This document shows positions 4,269-63,468 of a stretch of 64,000 nucleotides of DNA, piece after piece. Each line of letters begins with the position of its first letter. The stretch's first letter is position 1. The notes beneath the pieces are model-generated. The model did no database searches. It saw only the letters and a list, made by a program, of their open reading frames with translations, and had not been told where the DNA came from. The DNA is from an uncultured Gammaproteobacteria bacterium (GTDB taxonomy: Bacteria; Patescibacteriota; Microgenomatia; Levybacterales; UBA12049), in the NCBI GenBank assembly GCA_964408485.1, contig CAYOZJ010000003.1, positions 65,290 to 129,289 on the forward strand. Direction: 5' to 3'. The translations under genes were made by a program, and so were the position numbers.

Positions 4269-5426
4269 ATGCTTATCAAGCCTCAGACAAATAATTTTGC
4301 AAAAATCCGCGTTGTTGGAGTTGGTGGTGGCGGTACAAATGCCTTGGCATCAATGATTGCCTCCCAAACAATTCAAGGAGTTGATTTTATTGCTGTTAAT
4401 ACAGATGCACAGGCTCTTTTACTCAATCCTGCGGAAGCAAAAGTCCAAATTGGTGAAAAATTAACAAAGGGATTAGGAAGTGGAGGAGATCCAGAAGTTG
4501 GCAAACAAGCAGCAGAGGAGTCTATTGAAAAAATCAAAGATAGCCTTAGAGGATCTGATATGGTTTTCGTTGCTGCTGGTATGGGTGGAGGTACTGGGAC
4601 AGGCGCTGCAGCAATTATCGCAGGTGTTGCAAAAGAAATTGGTGCACTCACTATTGCTGTTGTTACTAAACCATTTGCATTCGAAGGCACACGACGCATG
4701 GTAAATGCAGAAGATGGGATCGAAGCACTAAAAGATAAAGTTGATACGCTTATTGTTATTCCAAATCAGAGAATATTGGATGTTGTAGATAAAAAGGTAA
4801 GCCTTATGGAGGCATTTCGCGTTGCCGATAGTGTGTTAACGCAGGGCGTGCAGGGAATCTCTGATTTAATTACTGTCCCTGGTCTTATTAATGTGGACTT
4901 TGCTGATGTAAGAAGTATCATGACGAATGCTGGGTCATCTCTTATGGGTATTGGTACTGGGACCGGAGAAAATAAAGCACAAGTTGCAGCACGGGCTGCA
5001 GTGAGTAGTCCATTGCTTGAAATAAATATGGAAGGTGCACGGGGAGTCTTATTTAATATTACCGGTGGACCGGATATGTCCATGACAGAAGTCGATGAAG
5101 CAGCACGAATTATTTCTGAGGCTGCAGATCCTGATGCGAATATTATTTTTGGAACAACAATTGATGAAGAATTGCGAGATACAATAAAAATTACGCTTGT
5201 TGCAACAGGATTTGATTCAACACAGCAAAAATTATCTCAATTTGTCCCTGAGTCGTCTCAGTTTGTTAAGCAGCAAGAACCTGTTGAAAAAAGCCCAGAT
5301 GAGCAAGTATTACCGATTGTTCCACAAAATATGCAAAATTCTACAGGGACAACAACTGCGTCAACAGATGACGAACCAAATGAAGATATGTGGGATATTC
5401 CCGCTTTCTTGAGACATAAGAATTAA
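4269..5426 (+). CDS. ftsZ: cell division GTPase FtsZ
   Basis: Tubulin signature [11 protein letters not shown]-terminal [16 protein letters not shown] ribosome-binding site 6 nt upstream of ATG. Confidence 0.95.
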
Positions 5427-10244: not shown

Positions 10245-10332
10245 CTTGTCATTCTGGCACTCGATTCAGTACTTGCTTCGCCGAAGCGGCGCTTTCCAGA
10301 ATCTGGATTCCTGCCTTCGCAGGAATGACACT
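10245..10332. repeat. MITE-like palindromic repeat, GTCATTC...GAATGAC family, copy R1
   Basis: Reads gtcattctggcac...ccagaatctggattcctgccttcgcaggaatgacac; nested hairpins; shares the cttcgccgaagcgg motif with copy R5. Confidence 0.6.
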
Positions 10333-13447: not shown

Positions 13448-14266
13448 TTATTCTACTACTTTTCGTAGGCTTTCCACTTCTTTTTTTGACAATTCTCTGT
13501 ATTCTCCTCGTTTTAAACTTCCTAATTTGAGTGGACCAAAGGCAATGCGTTGTAAATCAAGAAGTTGTATTCCCATTTCTTCACACATCCGTCGAATTTG
13601 TCTATTCCGTCCTTCGTGAAGGGTTATGTCTAGGGTTGTTTTTTCCTTGTCATTCCCGCGCAGGCGGGAATCCAGATGGTCTATTTTTGTTTTAGAACCT
13701 GGATCCCGCATCAAGTGCGGGATGACACGTTGTGAGTTCGGGATGACTGTTTTAACGACAGTCACTTCTGCAGGCATTGTTATTCCATCTTCTAAAATAA
13801 CACCTATGCGAAGTTGCTCAAGTTGTCCTTTTGTTGGTTGTCCTGCAACAAGAATTCGGTACAGTTTGGGTACATGGTAGCGAGGATGAATAAGCTGATG
13901 AGTTAACTCTCCATCATTTGTTAACAAAACAAGCCCATGAGAATCTTTATCCAGTCTTCCAACAGGATAAATTCTGTAGGGAGTATCAATAAGAGAAGTC
14001 ACTGTGTCACGCGCAAATTCGTCTGCAGTTGAGGAAATAATGCCAATTGGTTTATTTAATATATAGTAAACAAAGCCAGGCTTTTGTACTTTTTCACCAT
14101 TTATCAAAACAAGTTGCTTACTACCTACCCGGATTCCAGATTCTGTTACTCGTTTGCCGTCAATAGTAACGTCATTATTTTTCAAAAATGACTTTACCCC
14201 TCGCCGGGAAATTATCCCAGCATTAGCTAAAAATTTATCCAAGCGGATTTTTATATCTTGCTGCAC
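13448..14266 (-). CDS. RluB/RsuA-family pseudouridine synthase (S4 domain plus catalytic domain) carrying a 35-aa in-frame insertion
   Basis: S4 region RLDKFLANAGIISRR, catalytic PVGRLDKDSHGLVLLTNDG, C-terminal LHEGRNRQIRRMCE; GTG start; the insertion IPNSQRVIPHLMRDPGSKTKIDHLDSRLRGNDKEK is encoded by repeat copy R2. Confidence 0.8.
   Translation of the reverse strand: MQQDIKIRLDKFLANAGIISRRGVKSFLKNNDVTIDGKRVTESGIRVGSKQLVLINGEKVQKPGFVYYILNKPIGIISSTADEFARDTVTSLIDTPYRIYPVGRLDKDSHGLVLLTNDGELTHQLIHPRYHVPKLYRILVAGQPTKGQLEQLRIGVILEDGITMPAEVTVVKTVIPNSQRVIPHLMRDPGSKTKIDHLDSRLRGNDKEKTTLDITLHEGRNRQIRRMCEEMGIQLLDLQRIAFGPLKLGSLKRGEYRELSKKEVESLRKVVE
13649..13747. repeat. MITE-like palindromic repeat copy R2, lying in-frame inside the pseudouridine synthase gene
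   Basis: Reads gtcattcccgcgcaggcgggaatccagatgg...cctggatcccgcatcaagtgcgggatgacacgttgtgagttcgggatgac; three hairpins; the insertion spans codons 175-209. Confidence 0.65.
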
Positions 14267-50288: not shown

Positions 50289-50325
50289 AGTTTTATTGCA
50301 TAACCAGGCGCAGGATTGTGTCTAG

Positions 50326-50398
50326 AGCCGATGGTGAGGATCGAACTCACTACCTACGCTTTACGAAAGCGCCGCTCTGCCAATTGAGCTACATCGGC
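50326..50398 (-). tRNA. tRNA-Thr (anticodon CGT); CCA not encoded
   Basis: Minus-strand fold: acceptor GCCGATG/CATCGGC, D-arm GCTC-AATTGGCA-GAGC, anticodon arm GCGCT-TTCGTAA-AGCGT, T-arm GTGAG-TTCGATC-CTCAC. Confidence 0.85.
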
Positions 50399-50456
50399 AC
50401 TTTCTTATTATATAGTATTCTACTTTTAAGATCATGTCTAGATTTTTATCTTACTC

Positions 50457-51211
50457 CCGATATGCATACCTATTCCATCTCCGAAGTGGATTAGGTTGAC
50501 ACATCGGGAATTTGATGTTTAGCTAAAGTCATGCCATATAGACAAACGGTTTTGGCAACTGGAGAGTTTTACCATATTTTTAATAGAGGTGTAGCAAGGA
50601 TGCCAACTTTTGTTACCTCTCGGGATTATAGTAGGTTTACTCAAGCACTCCAGTATTATATGAATGCGAATGCCAAACCAAAGTTCTCTGCTGCACACGA
50701 ACTATCTATTTTACATTCAGCAACAAAAAATTTAATTGATATTATTGCGTATTGTCTGATGCCAAATCATTTTCATCTATTGTTAAAACAAAAGACTGAG
50801 AATGGAATCTCTCAATATATGAAAAATATTAGCATAAGTTATACAAAATATTTCAACATTAAAAATGATAGAGTAGGTCCATTGTTTCAAGGTGCATTTA
50901 AGGCTGTTCGTATTGAAACAACTGAGCAGTTACTTCATGTGCATAGGTATATTCACATAAATCCAACAGTTGGTTTTGTAACGAAATCCTTAGAGGATTA
51001 TCCATGGTCGTCATTCCATGAGTATGCAAAGAGGAAAATTGGTTTTTGTGAGAAAGAGCTAATTCTAAGTAATTTTTCAAATCCTAAACAATATCGACAG
51101 TTTCTTTTGGATCAGGAAGATTATGGAAAACAACTTAAAGGTATACAGCATCTTCTCCTTGATCTAGAGAAATAATTCCGATGTGCGAAGCTGTTCCATC
51201 TCCGAAGTGGA
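50457..51211 (+). mobile_element. IS200/IS605-family-like minimal element: Y1 (HUH) transposase flanked by 34-bp imperfect direct repeats, each with a TTCCA-TCTCCGAAG-TGGAA hairpin
   Basis: Left repeat 50457-50490 ccgatatgcatacctattccatctccgaagtgga; right repeat 51178-51211 ccgatgtgcgaagctgttccatctccgaagtgga; both in the same orientation, as expected for IS200 left and right ends. Confidence 0.6.
50531..51175 (+). CDS. tnpA: IS200-like / REP-associated tyrosine (Y1, HUH) transposase
   Basis: HUH motif CLMPNHFHLLL, catalytic-Tyr region HVHRYIHINP, and the YPWSS motif typical of the RAYT/COG1943 group. Confidence 0.75.
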   Translation: MPYRQTVLATGEFYHIFNRGVARMPTFVTSRDYSRFTQALQYYMNANAKPKFSAAHELSILHSATKNLIDIIAYCLMPNHFHLLLKQKTENGISQYMKNISISYTKYFNIKNDRVGPLFQGAFKAVRIETTEQLLHVHRYIHINPTVGFVTKSLEDYPWSSFHEYAKRKIGFCEKELILSNFSNPKQYRQFLLDQEDYGKQLKGIQHLLLDLEK

Positions 51212-51288
51212 AGAAAGCATAGTAAGTATCCAGAATCTTAATATTTAATTATTTCACTCACAATTTTCAGGATTATATAAGTTCCCCA

Positions 51289-53823
51289 TTGACAACATTT
51301 CATAAATATTTATATGCTGGATATATGAGTGTAGGAGGACCAGGAAGAGGAGCAGGACCAGAGGCAGCAGGAGCTCCAGTACATGAAATACAAAAAAAAC
51401 CAAAGAGGACTTTTGGTGAAAATGTAGCACAAGGTATTGCAAGATTTGCAAAGCTTCATACTGTTCACAGAATAGGGGAAGTTGCTGGTAGGAATCTTCG
51501 TGGTGTAGCATCCAATGGACAAGAAAGAAACATAGAGGATGCATTACTTGTCTCTCCGAGACTTAATACGATGTGGAGAAATTTTCAAGAAAGATTTGGA
51601 GTTGGAGCAGCAAGACTCGGTGGTGTAGATATTGTTTATAAAGGACAAGGCCAGGAAGCATTTAAAGTTGATTATACGACCCCTGATGTGTTGCCTAAAA
51701 ATGCAACACCAGAGCAACAGCAAGATCATAGAATGCGTTCTGTCTTTAGGGATGTTGCTATGGCTGCAGATAGAGTAGGTGCAGCGGAGATAGCAGCAAT
51801 GATGCCAGACGAAGAACAGAGAACAAGAGGGCACGAGAGGCAGGAACATAGGATAGAAAGAGAGCATCCTGATCTTTGGGTTGGTCAGGATAGAAATGGG
51901 TACGTAATGGAAGTTTTGCGCTATGATTCTGATAAAGCAAGCGATCATGTAAGGCTTAACCCCAACACTGGGCAACCTGAATTTTTTGTTAGCGGTCAGG
52001 TTGAAGATAAGGTTGATCCTACGGTAACACGTGTTTCTATAGCAAAGTATAGATATGTTCCAGGTGTTTATGATGCAACGACTGGCCGTTGGACAGATAG
52101 ACTTGTTAGGTTTGGAGATGAAAATACTCCTGAAAATGATTTATTAAATAGAGATGCCTCTCGTGGGCAATTAAATGTTTCTTCAGAGCAGCATATGCGA
52201 TTTGTAAACTCCATGGCTTCTCGGCTTGCATCTGATTCTACAGACATAGCAGCTCTTCAGGCAGCGTATGGAATTTCGGGAAATGTAGCGACGTATATAG
52301 AGGCAGTACAAGGTGGGGGTGACGCAACGCTTCGAGGTCAATCTGATGAGCAAGTAAGACAAAGGATGCAGCAGCGAATTTCTAATGAAAGAGCAGAGAA
52401 TCTTAATGATTTTGATGAATCAGGTCATAAAGTTGTACTTTTAAGAGGATTAGGATCTGTAGAGTCGGGTAGAATGCAGGAACAAGATGCATTACGAATT
52501 AATGGTATTGACTTGCCTAGAAATACAATGACAACGCATAGAGAAACGATTGAAGGTAGAGAATATGCTGTTGCTCAAGAAGATAAGCAGCTTAGTCCGC
52601 GAACAGCCCAATTACTCAGAGAACTTCCAACAGAATATGCGAGGCAAAAGTATATGGCAGAATTTGGAGAAGAACTCGATCCAGAATCCGGTGAACAGCT
52701 AACAAGAGTAAGAATAGTAGAGACAAGATTTCCAGATGGATCCGCAGAAGCAGAACAAGATGGTAATTTGCATGCACGGCTGAATACAGAAAATGAATTA
52801 AATAGAGAGCACGAGCGTGCAATTATTAGAGGAAGTTTTGATGAAGTACCATCGAGTGCTCTAAAAGATCCTGCAGTGAACTTACTTTTCCTTGCTCCTC
52901 ATAATGCAGATGGTCGAATTCCTGGTACACTTAATAGTCTAAGACAAGCAGACGCGGCAATTAGGGGAATTGAAGAAAGAATTGCAAATAGGCCAACAGG
53001 TCAAAATAGTCCAACAGAATTCGCGTATGCGATGCAGTTATATGAATCAATTCTTTTGGATGGCGCAGAAGGAACAAGTGTTAACAGGAGTGCATTAGAA
53101 GGTTTTGTTATGCGTCAGGGTCATATGAGAGATGCTGGAGAAGTTTTGGCATATGTTAGAGAAAGACAATTAGATCAAGATGGAGAAGAAAGACTATCTG
53201 ATGTAGCAACGGACTTGATACAACAATTGAGTGGTGTTAGGAGCATTAGACCGGAGGATGTACAAATTGATGTAGCAAGAAGACTTGTTGATATTGTTGC
53301 AGAGAGCGGCGATTTGGATTTAAAAGCTCAATTAGATCAATTATACAGTACAGCGGATTTAAATGGCATTGATAGAGATTTGGTAAGAAGACTGAATGAA
53401 GCTTTTCCTCCAGTTATTAATAATCCTTTGGAATTTGCCCCTAGGTATGCTGCAGCTCTTGGGAATCCAGAGTTGGCGAGTCAACTGCTTAATGAATTTG
53501 GACCTGGTCTTCCGGAACAAATGAGAGCAGCTTTGCAGGAAGCAACACGTGCTAATCCAACAACAGATGAGATTGCAGCAGTAAGAACAGTTCAGGATGC
53601 AGCTAATTTACATGCACGTTATGAGCATATGACTGAGTCAGCAGCAATGTTGGTTGATTCTCGTCCTGCTACGGTTACACCGGCCGAGAGTTTCCAGAGA
53701 GCAGTTGAACCTTTACAGTCTATATTACCATCATTAACTCAAATGGCAGCAATGATAACAGCATTAACCAGTCAGCAAGCGAATAATGGGAATAATGGAA
53801 ATGGCTCAACAAACACTCCTTAG
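51289..53823 (+). CDS. large (844 aa) hypothetical soluble protein, highly charged, with no recognisable domain
   Basis: Long ORF with higher GC than its neighbours; TTG at 51289 and the first ATG at 51322; no TM or signal peptide; ends in an Asn/Gly-rich tail. Confidence 0.55.
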   Translation: MTTFHKYLYAGYMSVGGPGRGAGPEAAGAPVHEIQKKPKRTFGENVAQGIARFAKLHTVHRIGEVAGRNLRGVASNGQERNIEDALLVSPRLNTMWRNFQERFGVGAARLGGVDIVYKGQGQEAFKVDYTTPDVLPKNATPEQQQDHRMRSVFRDVAMAADRVGAAEIAAMMPDEEQRTRGHERQEHRIEREHPDLWVGQDRNGYVMEVLRYDSDKASDHVRLNPNTGQPEFFVSGQVEDKVDPTVTRVSIAKYRYVPGVYDATTGRWTDRLVRFGDENTPENDLLNRDASRGQLNVSSEQHMRFVNSMASRLASDSTDIAALQAAYGISGNVATYIEAVQGGGDATLRGQSDEQVRQRMQQRISNERAENLNDFDESGHKVVLLRGLGSVESGRMQEQDALRINGIDLPRNTMTTHRETIEGREYAVAQEDKQLSPRTAQLLRELPTEYARQKYMAEFGEELDPESGEQLTRVRIVETRFPDGSAEAEQDGNLHARLNTENELNREHERAIIRGSFDEVPSSALKDPAVNLLFLAPHNADGRIPGTLNSLRQADAAIRGIEERIANRPTGQNSPTEFAYAMQLYESILLDGAEGTSVNRSALEGFVMRQGHMRDAGEVLAYVRERQLDQDGEERLSDVATDLIQQLSGVRSIRPEDVQIDVARRLVDIVAESGDLDLKAQLDQLYSTADLNGIDRDLVRRLNEAFPPVINNPLEFAPRYAAALGNPELASQLLNEFGPGLPEQMRAALQEATRANPTTDEIAAVRTVQDAANLHARYEHMTESAAMLVDSRPATVTPAESFQRAVEPLQSILPSLTQMAAMITALTSQQANNGNNGNGSTNTP

Positions 53824-53868: not shown

Positions 53869-54987
53869 ATGCAAAATCTTTGGCAGACACTTCCTAAGCC
53901 TATTTTTTCTTTGGCTCCGATGGAGGATGTAACAGATACTGTCCTTCGCCAAATCTTTTGTATTACTGGTAAGCCAGATGTTTTCTTTACAGAGTTTACT
54001 AATGTCGATGGAATACAGTCTCAGGGTCACGACGTTGTTGCAAGGCGCCTTCAATTTACTAATACCGAACATCCAATCGTTGCACAGATTTGGGGTATGA
54101 TTCCGGAGAATTTTTATAAGACAGCAAAAGACTTAGTAGAAAGAGGATTTGATGGAATAGATATAAATATGGGGTGTCCCCAGCATGATGTAACAAGTCA
54201 TGGTGCATGTAGTGCGCTTATTAAAAATCCTTCCCTTGCTCAGGAAATAATCCAGGCCACAAAAGAGGGAGCCCATTCGACAAGTTCAGAACAAACACAA
54301 AACTTACCCGTTAGTGTTAAGACAAGAATTGGATTTAAAACAATTGCAACAGATGAATGGATAGGATTTTTACTCGGGCAAAAATTGAGTCTTATTACTG
54401 TTCATGGTCGTACAGCGGCAGAAATGTCTAAAGTTCCGGCTCATTGGGATGAAATTGGCAATGCTGTAAGGTTGAGAGATGAATTTGAAAAGAAAAACGC
54501 CCTCACCCTTGACCCTCCCGCGCTTGTCAAGCAAGCAGCCTCCCTCACTTCGTTCAGTCCGGCCCCAGAGGGCGAGGGAAAACATGGTAGTGCTTTGCAC
54601 ACACTAATAATGGGCAATGGAGATGTGCAAAGCTTAGAGGAAGCAAAAGAAAAAATTGCCACATATCATGTTGATGGCGTTATGATAGGTCGTGGAATAT
54701 TCCATAACCCATGGATTTTTGCAGGAATTGATCCCAAGACCAAATCGCTTCAGGAAAGACTTGAATTACTTAAGACTCATGTTGCGCTGTATCAAAAAAC
54801 ATGGGGAGCACAAAAATCATTCCAGATCTTAAAGAAATATTTTAAAGTGTACCTATCAGACTTTGATGGAGCAAATGAAATGAGGCAGCAATTTATGAAT
54901 ACTAACTCTTATGAGGAAGCTCTTTCCCTTGCTGACAAGTTCCTTTTGTCATCCCGGACTGCGCTGCTTCGGGGAAGCAAGTACTGA
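53869..54987 (+). CDS. dus: tRNA-dihydrouridine synthase (Dus) carrying an in-frame insertion of about 39 aa
   Basis: LAPMEDVTDTVLRQI, GIDINMGCPQ, GNGDV and GVMIGRG motifs; the inserted segment FEKKNALTLDPPALVKQAASLTSFSPAPEGEGKHGSALH is encoded by repeat copy R4. Confidence 0.85.
   Translation: MQNLWQTLPKPIFSLAPMEDVTDTVLRQIFCITGKPDVFFTEFTNVDGIQSQGHDVVARRLQFTNTEHPIVAQIWGMIPENFYKTAKDLVERGFDGIDINMGCPQHDVTSHGACSALIKNPSLAQEIIQATKEGAHSTSSEQTQNLPVSVKTRIGFKTIATDEWIGFLLGQKLSLITVHGRTAAEMSKVPAHWDEIGNAVRLRDEFEKKNALTLDPPALVKQAASLTSFSPAPEGEGKHGSALHTLIMGNGDVQSLEEAKEKIATYHVDGVMIGRGIFHNPWIFAGIDPKTKSLQERLELLKTHVALYQKTWGAQKSFQILKKYFKVYLSDFDGANEMRQQFMNTNSYEEALSLADKFLLSSRTALLRGSKY
54497..54580. repeat. palindromic repeat copy R4, in-frame inside dus
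   Basis: gccctcacccttgaccctcccgcgcttgtcaagcaagcagcctccctcacttcgttcagtccggccccagagggcgaggg has outer inverted arms CCCTCACCC/GGGCGAGGG and shares cttcacttcgtt(c/t)ag with copies R5 and R6. Confidence 0.55.
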
Positions 54988-55014
54988 GTCGAGTGATCCG
55001 GGATCAAGGAATTA

Positions 55015-55107
55015 GATTCTTCACTTCGTTCAGAATGACGAGAAGACTGGATTTCCCCCAAGGGGATTAGCTTCGCCGAAGCGGTCCCGCCCTGCGCGGG
55101 AATGACT
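55015..55107. repeat. MITE-like repeat copy R5 (composite)
   Basis: cttcacttcgttcagaatgac...gcttcgccgaagcgg...cccgccctgcgcgggaatgac combines the motifs seen in R1, R2, R4 and R6. Confidence 0.55.
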
Positions 55108-55730: not shown

Positions 55731-55900
55731 GCATTTTCAAAAATAGTTGTCTTATCCAGTCAAAAGTAATGCGAAATTCTGGTTCGGTGCTTTTACTGCG
55801 CTCTAATTTAGGCAAAAGAGAAGTCTCCCATCCGTTTCCTGAAAAAGAGGGAGTAAAGCTAACAACTGTGTTTTTTAAATTTATTTCTTCCATATATTTT

Positions 55901-55957
55901 GTCATTCTGGCTTGTCCAGAATCTAGATCCTGGATGCGCTACGCTTACCAGGATGAC
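55901..55957. repeat. MITE-like repeat copy R7, immediately 3' of lexA
   Basis: gtcattctggcttgtccagaatctagatcctggatgcgctacgcttaccaggatgac: two hairpins (attctgg/ccagaat and atcctgg/ccaggat) and GTCAT/ATGAC termini; the first 37 nt are identical to R8. Confidence 0.7.
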
Positions 55958-55964
55958 GGTTAAA

Positions 55965-63390: not shown

Positions 63391-63399
63391 ACTTAAAGT

Positions 63400-63468
63400 G
63401 TCATTCTGGCTTGTCCAGAATCTAGATCCTGGATGCCTCCACGCTTCGCTCTGAGTTACCAGGATGAC
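63400..63468. repeat. MITE-like repeat copy R8, in the atpF-atpH intergenic region
   Basis: gtcattctggcttgtccagaatctagatcctggatgcctccacgcttcgctctgagttaccaggatgac is near-identical to R7, with an extra cacgcttcgctctgag segment. Confidence 0.7.

Follow-up and report, generated by a model that had tools for sequence, protein, structure and literature searches.

The largest group of RAYT-like genes, RAYT group 1 (Bertels et al. 2017, PMC5581495), corresponds to subclass 2.1 of the TnpAY1 proteins (Quentin et al. 2018, PMC6006769) and is home to most TIRYTs; neither its substrate nor its function has been established. Members of the subclass carry the motifs NH[YF]H, FQ and Y[IV]HLNP and a proximal C-terminal SS (PMC6006769, Table 1), have a median length of 238 amino acids (aa), and possess a helix-turn-helix (HTH)-like distal domain. 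In the TIRtrons described by Di Nocera et al. (2013, PMC3733652) a RAYT-like Y1 gene of low or single copy number, the TIRYT, is accompanied by inverted repeats, which keep a more or less constant distance from the coding sequence. These repeats are in some cases partly or wholly self-complementary or "double palindromic", and few or none are found elsewhere in the genome. Here we describe a Y1/HUH nuclease gene that lies beside a tRNA-Thr(CGT) gene, between two hairpin-bearing repeats, in a 64,000-nt stretch of a genome placed by GTDB within the Patescibacteriota (assembly GCA_964408485.1, contig CAYOZJ010000003.1, positions 65,290 to 129,289; hereafter the window). The locus is probably a TIRtron/REPtron-like cassette, that is, a discrete, old, single-copy RAYT-like gene for a single-strand DNA nuclease held between two cognate hairpin units. 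We conclude that the cassette is of a long-resident kind common in Patescibacteria (the Candidate Phyla Radiation, CPR), and not an actively jumping insertion sequence (IS).

The initial annotation of the locus had described a 214-aa open reading frame (ORF) with the motifs HFHLLL (NHFHLLL in full), RYIHINP and YPWSS, imperfect direct repeats of 34 bp on either side of it, and a neighboring tRNA-Thr(CGT), all of which were recovered (Table 1). The two repeats are identical at 29 of 34 bases and can be extended to 39 nt with 82% identity (50452-50490 and 51173-51211), bracketing the ORF, and 58 nt separate the tRNA from the start of the 34-nt repeat. Each repeat had also been thought to form a TTCCA/TGGAA hairpin, which is correct for the downstream copy, whereas the small stem of the upstream copy has 4 bp (TCCA/TGGA) and is located inside a longer hairpin of 55 nt (CCCGAT...ATCGGG; inverted repeat I2). 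Within this long hairpin the inner hairpin (H) is preceded by a 5' extension (E5) and followed by a 3' extension (E3), and the upstream direct-repeat copy makes up the 5' two-thirds of the whole; the downstream unit consists of E5 followed by H. Compared with shuffled sequences, the upstream hairpin folds strongly as DNA, its energies being -14.1 (+ strand) and -16.4 kcal/mol (- strand), with z-scores of -4.5 and -5.9 respectively, and the downstream copy folds only into the small TTCCA/TGGAA stem, with ordinary stability (z about -1.2). The downstream E5 is complementary to the upstream E3, the two being part of an inverted repeat (I1) with arms of 35 nt and 71% complementarity (50473-50507 and 51178-51212). 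The downstream unit begins 1-3 nt past the Y1 stop codon, and conservation with related loci stops directly after H. The upstream hairpin is positioned between the divergent promoters of tRNA-Thr and the Y1 gene and is kept in the loci of the two closest homologues (L090 and L092) and of a further protein, P0010. Gene and hairpins together form a unit of about 760 bp.

When copies were counted across the 64-kb window, the 18-mer core of the repeat (TTCCATCTCCGAAGTGGA) was found exactly twice, both times at the flanks of the gene (0.01 expected; two or more in 0 of 100 shuffles). CCGATRTGC, from the 5' part of the repeat, was confined to the same two sites, and the Y1 gene was present once. A search with Rfam between 50200 and 51400 returned the tRNA only; PADLOC gave no match and PHROGs a weak match only. 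A scan of metagenome contigs for the exact 18-mer gave 63 matches, each of them single and in unrelated, mostly high-GC contexts that had no Y1 gene, and was uninformative on dispersal in the source organism.

The encoded protein passes the Pfam model Y1_Tnp (37 bits against a cut-off of 23). In an alignment of 24 homologues (A1) residues H80 and H82 of the HUH motif and Y140 were invariant, and the C-terminal extension was also conserved. Its motifs are NHFH, PLFQG, YIHINP (YIHLNP in the family consensus) and WSS, the tyrosine motif being of the RAYT type Y...NP and not Y...Q. As judged by these motifs against Table 1 of PMC6006769, and not by the hidden Markov models of its authors, the protein appears to fit TnpAY1 subclass 2.1. 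In a profile search of PDB sequences the top match was 4ER8, E. coli TnpAREP, and the same structure was ranked first by Foldseek for the AlphaFold model of the protein (pLDDT 87, pTM 0.85), with E = 3e-8 and a target-normalised TM of 0.72, compared with E of about 1e-4 and TM of about 0.40 for the TnpA proteins of IS608 and ISDra2. The C-terminus of the model is formed by three short helices (residues 176-212). The predicted structure is a Y1 fold nearest to TnpAREP, with the catalytic HUH and tyrosine residues intact. The earlier view of the gene as RAYT-like and flanked by cognate hairpins was borne out, while its assignment to the IS200/IS608-type transposases was not, given a score of 13.4 bits with the NCBIfam model transpos_IS200 (cut-off 55), the Y...NP motif, and a length of 214 aa that includes a C-terminal extension.

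Protein searches showed that relatives of this Y1 protein are numerous, with more than 4,000 at the 90% cluster level, the named ones belonging to Levy-, Davies- and Curtissbacteria and other Microgenomates. The best non-self match among 5.8 billion proteins was 71% identical, the bulk being at about 50-55%. The flanks were surveyed in 80 loci from species-representative genomes, whose products are 35-52% identical to the window protein. In about 60 of 74 distant Patescibacteria homologues the gene is flanked by a hairpin of its own, common to both flanks and differing between genomes. In most of the 74 loci the hairpin-centred repeat is found twice, first about 30-75 nt ahead of the ATG and then 0-45 nt past the stop codon, with scores far above those of shuffles. 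A perfect stem of at least 6 bp was found in 68% of the upstream and 69% of the downstream flanks, as opposed to 11-15% in the controls (shuffles, and sites elsewhere in the loci). The hairpin sequence varies from genome to genome while the palindrome is retained (for example TTCCACCTCTAAGGTGGAA, GATTACACCCCAAGGGTGTAATC and CGGGGTTTCGAAACCCCG), a CACC/GGTG theme runs through the cognate hairpins of the family, and diverged paralogues in one genome bear different hairpins (L004 and L036; L010 and L065). Beyond the flanks, 11 extra hairpin copies were found in 375 kb around 50 homologues, concentrated in few loci. In half of 38 loci tested the upstream E3 was complementary to the downstream E5 (score of at least 8; 0.9% in shuffles), and the extension was directly repeated in 11%; this complementarity identifies the inner parts of the flanks as terminal inverted repeats. 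As for the outer hairpin, 28 loci have its loop in direct and 18 in inverted orientation; the window is of the direct kind, with both hairpins and their asymmetric 9-nt loop on the + strand. Tandem duplications of half a hairpin with a few flanking bases, in two to four copies, were seen downstream of the gene in L017, L032, L033, L057, L073 and L074 and upstream in L020 and L058, always on the outer side of the flank hairpin as seen from the Y1 gene, and might be traces of local nicking, copying or slippage at the hairpins.

The copies of a hairpin resemble each other more than they resemble those of relatives. The window and L090 each have one and the same H and loop in both flanks; those of L092 are nearly the same, and its two copies have in common changes by which they differ from the window and L090. 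The loops read TCTCCGAAG in the window, TCCCCGATG in L090 and A/CACCAGGGG in L092. Likewise, in a Daviesbacteria-type syntenic group both flanks are alike in L014 (GTACACCC..GGGTGT) and in L010 (GTCCACCC..GGGTGGA). Since the flank copies are alike within genomes and unlike between them, the hairpin must have been copied between flanks or regenerated. E5 has differences that are specific to each copy and common across genomes (GATATGC..CCTA upstream, GATGTGCGAAGCT downstream).

Seven contigs with P0010 from independent Logan assemblies (L083-L089) were also inspected, and five of them start at the upstream hairpin, 61 nt ahead of the ATG. Flip/flop heterogeneity at this hairpin was considered and rejected, because the sequences are identical across samples, and the breaks look like a repeat-caused assembly effect. 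The hairpin pair seems to disturb assembly and may bias contig ends around this Y1 family.

The Y1 gene has a fixed locus across species-level divergence. Its two closest homologues in the protein search, L090/L091 (70% identity) and L092 (59%), adjoin a minus-strand tRNA-Thr(CGT) as in the window, and L092 has Wzy_C and Ig-like genes upstream in common with it. Between the window and L092 identity is 59% for the Y1 protein, 62% for the Ig-like protein and 52% for Ig and Wzy together. In two other sub-clades synteny on both sides of the gene extends across several species, with identities of 61-77% for Y1 and 47-88% for its neighbors. No identical protein was found in two contexts, P0010 being present on 8 contigs in a single one. 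Through orthologues of the Ig-like neighbor we have also reached seven related genomes in which the site is empty (L156, L157, L158, L159/L160, L162, L163 and L164), the next gene following directly after tRNA-Thr(CGT), with a gap of about 50-200 nt and no Y1 gene; an additional locus, L161, was uninformative because its contig stops at the tRNA. At the tRNA-Thr site a genome has either the entire cassette or none of it, and a neighbor-joining tree of host proteins places one of the empty genomes, L156, as sister to the window. That Y1 and the host genes have diverged equally favors old residency with repeated loss, while event parsimony favors gains. No remnants of the hairpin units were found in the seven empty sites, where alignment is limited to the promoter of the tRNA and the one downstream; apparent matches to CTCCGAT and TCCAGAATCTT were not significant. 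The left end can be placed between 50441 and 50455, the predicted tRNA-Thr promoter setting the outer limit, and the right end between 51212 and 51288. No conserved target motif was seen at the left junction. Of the proposal that an element had inserted next to tRNA-Thr, the discrete unit with empty counterpart sites holds, but not a recent or multicopy element, as the relatives at the same site are only 59-70% identical and the window contains one copy. For the family as a whole tRNA adjacency as a target was dismissed, since a tRNA within about 130 nt occurs in about 8 of 80 loci, of differing tRNA species and at a frequency near expectation for intergenic sites.

Several observations were made on the tRNA-Thr site itself. 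The tRNA-Thr(CGT) of the window is 77% identical to the same-site tRNAs of L090 (208-280) and L092 (3557-3629), which are 96% identical to each other, and it may be that the tRNA at the site was replaced in the window lineage. In L158 (GCA_035457005.1, about 2830-2990) a standard tRNA-Thr is apparently split in its anticodon region by an insert of about 110 nt with TTGCCCGCC/GGCGGGC inverted ends, which carries a further tRNA-Thr(CGT), the one called by ARAGORN. In L157 an ORF of 81 aa of the GIY-YIG type lies between tRNA-Thr and the Ig-like gene (2733-2978). Taken with the Y1 cassette, the L157 ORF and the L158 insert suggest that the tRNA-Thr neighborhood is an insertion hot spot in this clade.

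The upstream repeat also seems to be part of the promoter of the Y1 gene. A perfect TTGACA is found inside E3, 35 nt upstream of the ATG, and is followed by a weak -10 box that ends 5-6 nt before the ATG, a distance that would make the mRNA leaderless or nearly so. A perfect TTGACA within -45 to -25 of the ATG was present in 34 of the 74 homologue loci, most of them with a spacer of 17-18 nt and a TAnnnT -10 box only 5-9 nt from the ATG. Many loci have the TTGACA at -34 to -38, with the hairpin just upstream of the -35 box or including it. The same arrangement was predicted for the neighboring gene of 844 aa (TTGACA at 51289, an 18-nt spacer, and TATGCT at 51313 ending 6 nt before an in-frame ATG at 51325), pointing to a habit of the genome and not a trait of the cassette. 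This 844-aa product has no Pfam domain, and the mechanically called start of its ORF (TTG, 51289) is probably wrong, given the promoter and start in 51289-51327; leaderless-type starts may be common in the source genome. A terminator role of the hairpins is unlikely, since a T-run is present at neither copy.

Table 1. Coordinates of the cassette, its tRNA landmark and the dispersed inverted-end elements in the 64-kb window
Feature	Position	Strand	Basis
Y1/HUH nuclease gene, RAYT-like, 214 aa, with the motif signature of TnpAY1 subclass 2.1	50531..51175	+	ORF, Pfam, NCBIfam, fold model
tRNA-Thr(CGT), landmark of the site, outside the cassette	50325..50398	-	tRNA call and Rfam; predicted promoter TAGACA 50440-50435, TACTAT 50417-50412
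Upstream long imperfect hairpin: E5 (CCCGATATGCATACCTA), inner hairpin H, E3 (TAGGTTGACACATCGGG)	50455..50509	+	folding energy, inverted repeat I2
Inner hairpin H, upstream copy, TTCCA-TCTCCGAAG-TGGAt	50473..50491	+	18-mer present twice in the window
Predicted Y1 promoter: -35 TTGACA 50496-50501 within E3; weak -10 TTAGCT/TAGCTA 50519-50525	50496..50525	+	family-wide TTGACA placement
Downstream repeat unit: E5 (CCGATGTGCGAAGCTG, 51178-51193), then H (TTCCA-TCTCCGAAG-TGGAA, 51194-51212)	51176..51212	+	repeats D1, I1
TGTCATYC...GRATGAC elements	10247-10331, 13648-13728, about 54947-55107, 55900-55958, 63399-63466

In layout the window and the family resemble the TIRtrons, with several differences. 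The motif shared by the published repeats is GGGGWSAS, whereas the inner extension of the family here is GGTGTSAA-like (complement TTSACACC), matching at 6 of 8 positions, and the window has only GATGTGCGAAG, along with GATATGCATAC. Furthermore, the outer hairpin is often in direct orientation, and a -35 box in the repeat, concerted flanks and Patescibacteria hosts were not described in PMC3733652. With subclass 2.1 the locus has in common the motif signature, a low copy number with diverged paralogues and the lack of a canonical REP (repetitive extragenic palindrome) population; it differs in its length of 214 aa, its short helical tail with no Pfam match for a distal domain, and its clear flanking hairpins. 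The E. coli TnpAREP (RayT/YafM) REPtron is nearest in fold and profile (4ER8), has Y...NP and W/F-SS-type motifs, and is likewise a single-copy, vertically kept gene flanked by hairpins that are presumed to be recognised. In contrast to it the cassette has no 5' GT[AG]G foot, about 50 extra C-terminal residues, a score below the cut-off of REP_Tyr_transpos, and no high-copy population of REPs or bacterial interspersed mosaic elements detected in the 64-kb window or in the 375 kb around 50 homologues. The IS200, IS608 and ISDra2 elements (subclass 1.1) share the HUH/Y1 core, a one-gene unit of 0.7-0.8 kb, subterminal hairpins and, for the window, hairpins on the same strand, but their proteins of about 150 aa have DH[VI]H and Y..NQ (Y[IV]ENQ) in place of the NHFH and Y...NP seen here in 214 aa, and the cassette is single-copy without near-identical copies, has inverted-repeat extensions and lacks tnpB. 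In a full-text literature search no description of a Patescibacteria clade of these Y1 genes was found. Compared with those papers, what is new is the Patescibacteria clade, hairpins in a group reported without them, the predicted promoter in the repeat, the concerted flanks, and the occupied and empty tRNA-Thr sites. The genome-specific hairpin pairs of the clade, with one copy fused to a predicted promoter, provide natural protein/DNA pairs for binding and cleavage assays, and the occupied and empty sites in sister genomes provide a comparative system for asking if such enzymes move DNA or regulate only themselves. For annotation, "transposase" calls of this Y1 family in CPR genomes should not be taken to imply active insertion sequences.

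If the locus is a TIRtron/REPtron-like cassette, the enzyme would bind the hairpin, extruded or single-stranded, and the extension next to it on both sides of the gene, in the way that TnpAREP binds REP. As the upstream unit overlaps the predicted -35 box, its occupancy should repress the Y1 gene, and the enzyme would in this way act on its own promoter. Rare nick-and-rejoin or copy events at the hairpins would keep both copies alike and would sometimes flip, duplicate or delete units, maybe deleting the whole cassette, which would not proliferate in the manner of an insertion sequence or a REPIN population. A stronger form seems to us rather unlikely, namely that the nuclease continues to act on the cassette that encodes it, nicking and rejoining or re-copying its own terminal hairpins. 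Such activity might take the form of a "flip/flop" similar to hairpin resolution, or the cassette might be excised and return to the same place near tRNA-Thr. If true, it would explain the concerted hairpins, the loops facing either way, the duplications of outer half-hairpins and the clean loss from sister genomes, and the cassette would then be a resident transposon that maintains itself without proliferating, is widespread in Patescibacteria and may stand midway between IS200-type elements and domesticated RAYTs.

A number of results weigh against a TIRtron/REPtron-like cassette. No REP-like sequence was reported near subclass 2.1 genes (PMC6006769). The best NCBIfam match of the protein, REP_Tyr_transpos, is at 53.8 bits under its cut-off of 80, and a Pfam search at E up to 0.1 gave no match besides Y1_Tnp for an HTH-like distal C-terminal domain (Bac_DnaA_C, HTH_23, HTH_28). 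At the hairpin feet of the window, where TTCCA is preceded by ACCTA in one copy and AGCTG in the other, the GT[AG]G tetranucleotide is absent, and it is not conserved across the homologue loci. The absence of further copies of the hairpin or its 5' extension, in itself a point in favor of the cassette, holds for the 64 kb of the source genome that were searched. The Y1 promoter was not listed by a consensus promoter scan of the window, owing to its weak -10 box, and the mechanism and current activity of the cassette are what we infer. Finally, with three occupied and seven empty sites on the host tree, at least four losses or two gains are required, so that site-specific mobility keeps some standing.

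One alternative is an autonomous minimal IS200/IS605-type insertion sequence, in which Y1 would bind same-strand end hairpins, excise the unit as a single-strand circle ("peel and paste") and reinsert it with a preference for the tRNA-Thr(CGT) flank. Block-wise presence or absence at one site, with two gains being more parsimonious than four or more losses, is what such an element would leave behind; the two hairpins of the window with their asymmetric loops are both direct on the + strand, the catalytic residues are intact, the unit is of IS200 size, and sub-clades of the family occupy different loci. We nevertheless hold it to be unlikely. The protein is poorly matched by the IS200 model and has the RAYT-type Y...NP; the window has a single copy and no identical protein was met in two contexts; the divergence of the nearest relatives tracks that of their hosts, with cross-species synteny in three clades; and the left junction lacks a conserved target motif. 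The 18 loci with inverted loops and the inner extensions that form inverted repeats are also a misfit with same-strand ends. Another alternative is a nuclease recruited by the host, whose real substrate is elsewhere and whose hairpins are expression signals only, as an operator at the promoter and a stabiliser or terminator at the 3' end of the mRNA. The long vertical residency of the gene speaks for it; in many loci the upstream hairpin does abut or overlap the -35 box, with constant spacing to the ATG, and the downstream hairpin, 0-45 nt past the stop codon, would be in the 3' untranslated region. This explanation appears distinctly improbable, as the upstream hairpin would not be transcribed with the gene if the promoter is as predicted, yet it is identical to the downstream one, which, like it, has no T-run terminator, and the half-hairpin duplications, loop flips and block-wise presence or absence suggest events at the level of DNA.

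It was also proposed that the Y1 enzyme might act as a classical RAYT, mobilising in trans a GTCATTC...GAATGAC family of hairpin repeats. Such a family does exist in the window, in the form of five or more GC-rich, strongly folding TGTCATTC elements with TGTCATYC...GRATGAC inverted ends (Table 1). Their length is 60-160 nt, and a gap of up to 30 nt, as in the pattern GTCATTC N3-30 GAATGAC, gave no match in the window. RAYTs are believed to serve REPINs in trans (PMC6006769), and the number of these structured elements in 64 kb would suit such a role. In a REPtron, though, the dispersed repeat is the same as the repeat flanking the gene, whereas here the flanks differ from the elements: the TGTCATTC elements and the cassette repeat have nothing specific in common, the 18-mer and CCGATRTGC are confined to the flanks of the gene and absent from the rest of the window, those elements included, and the hairpins of the family follow the CACC/GGTG theme and not TGTCATTC. 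Given that nothing specific is shared, mobilisation in trans finds no support in the sequences compared and is very improbable. The elements look like miniature inverted-repeat transposable elements, the copies at 55900 and 63399 being 100% identical over their first 38 nt; no transposase for them was identified, and no search aimed at one was made.

One further tRNA was encountered during the survey of homologues. In L016, a Patescibacteria-type contig, ARAGORN called at 5222-5296, about 570 nt downstream of a Y1 homologue, a tRNA with a CTA anticodon, labelled Pyl, which is a possible amber suppressor.

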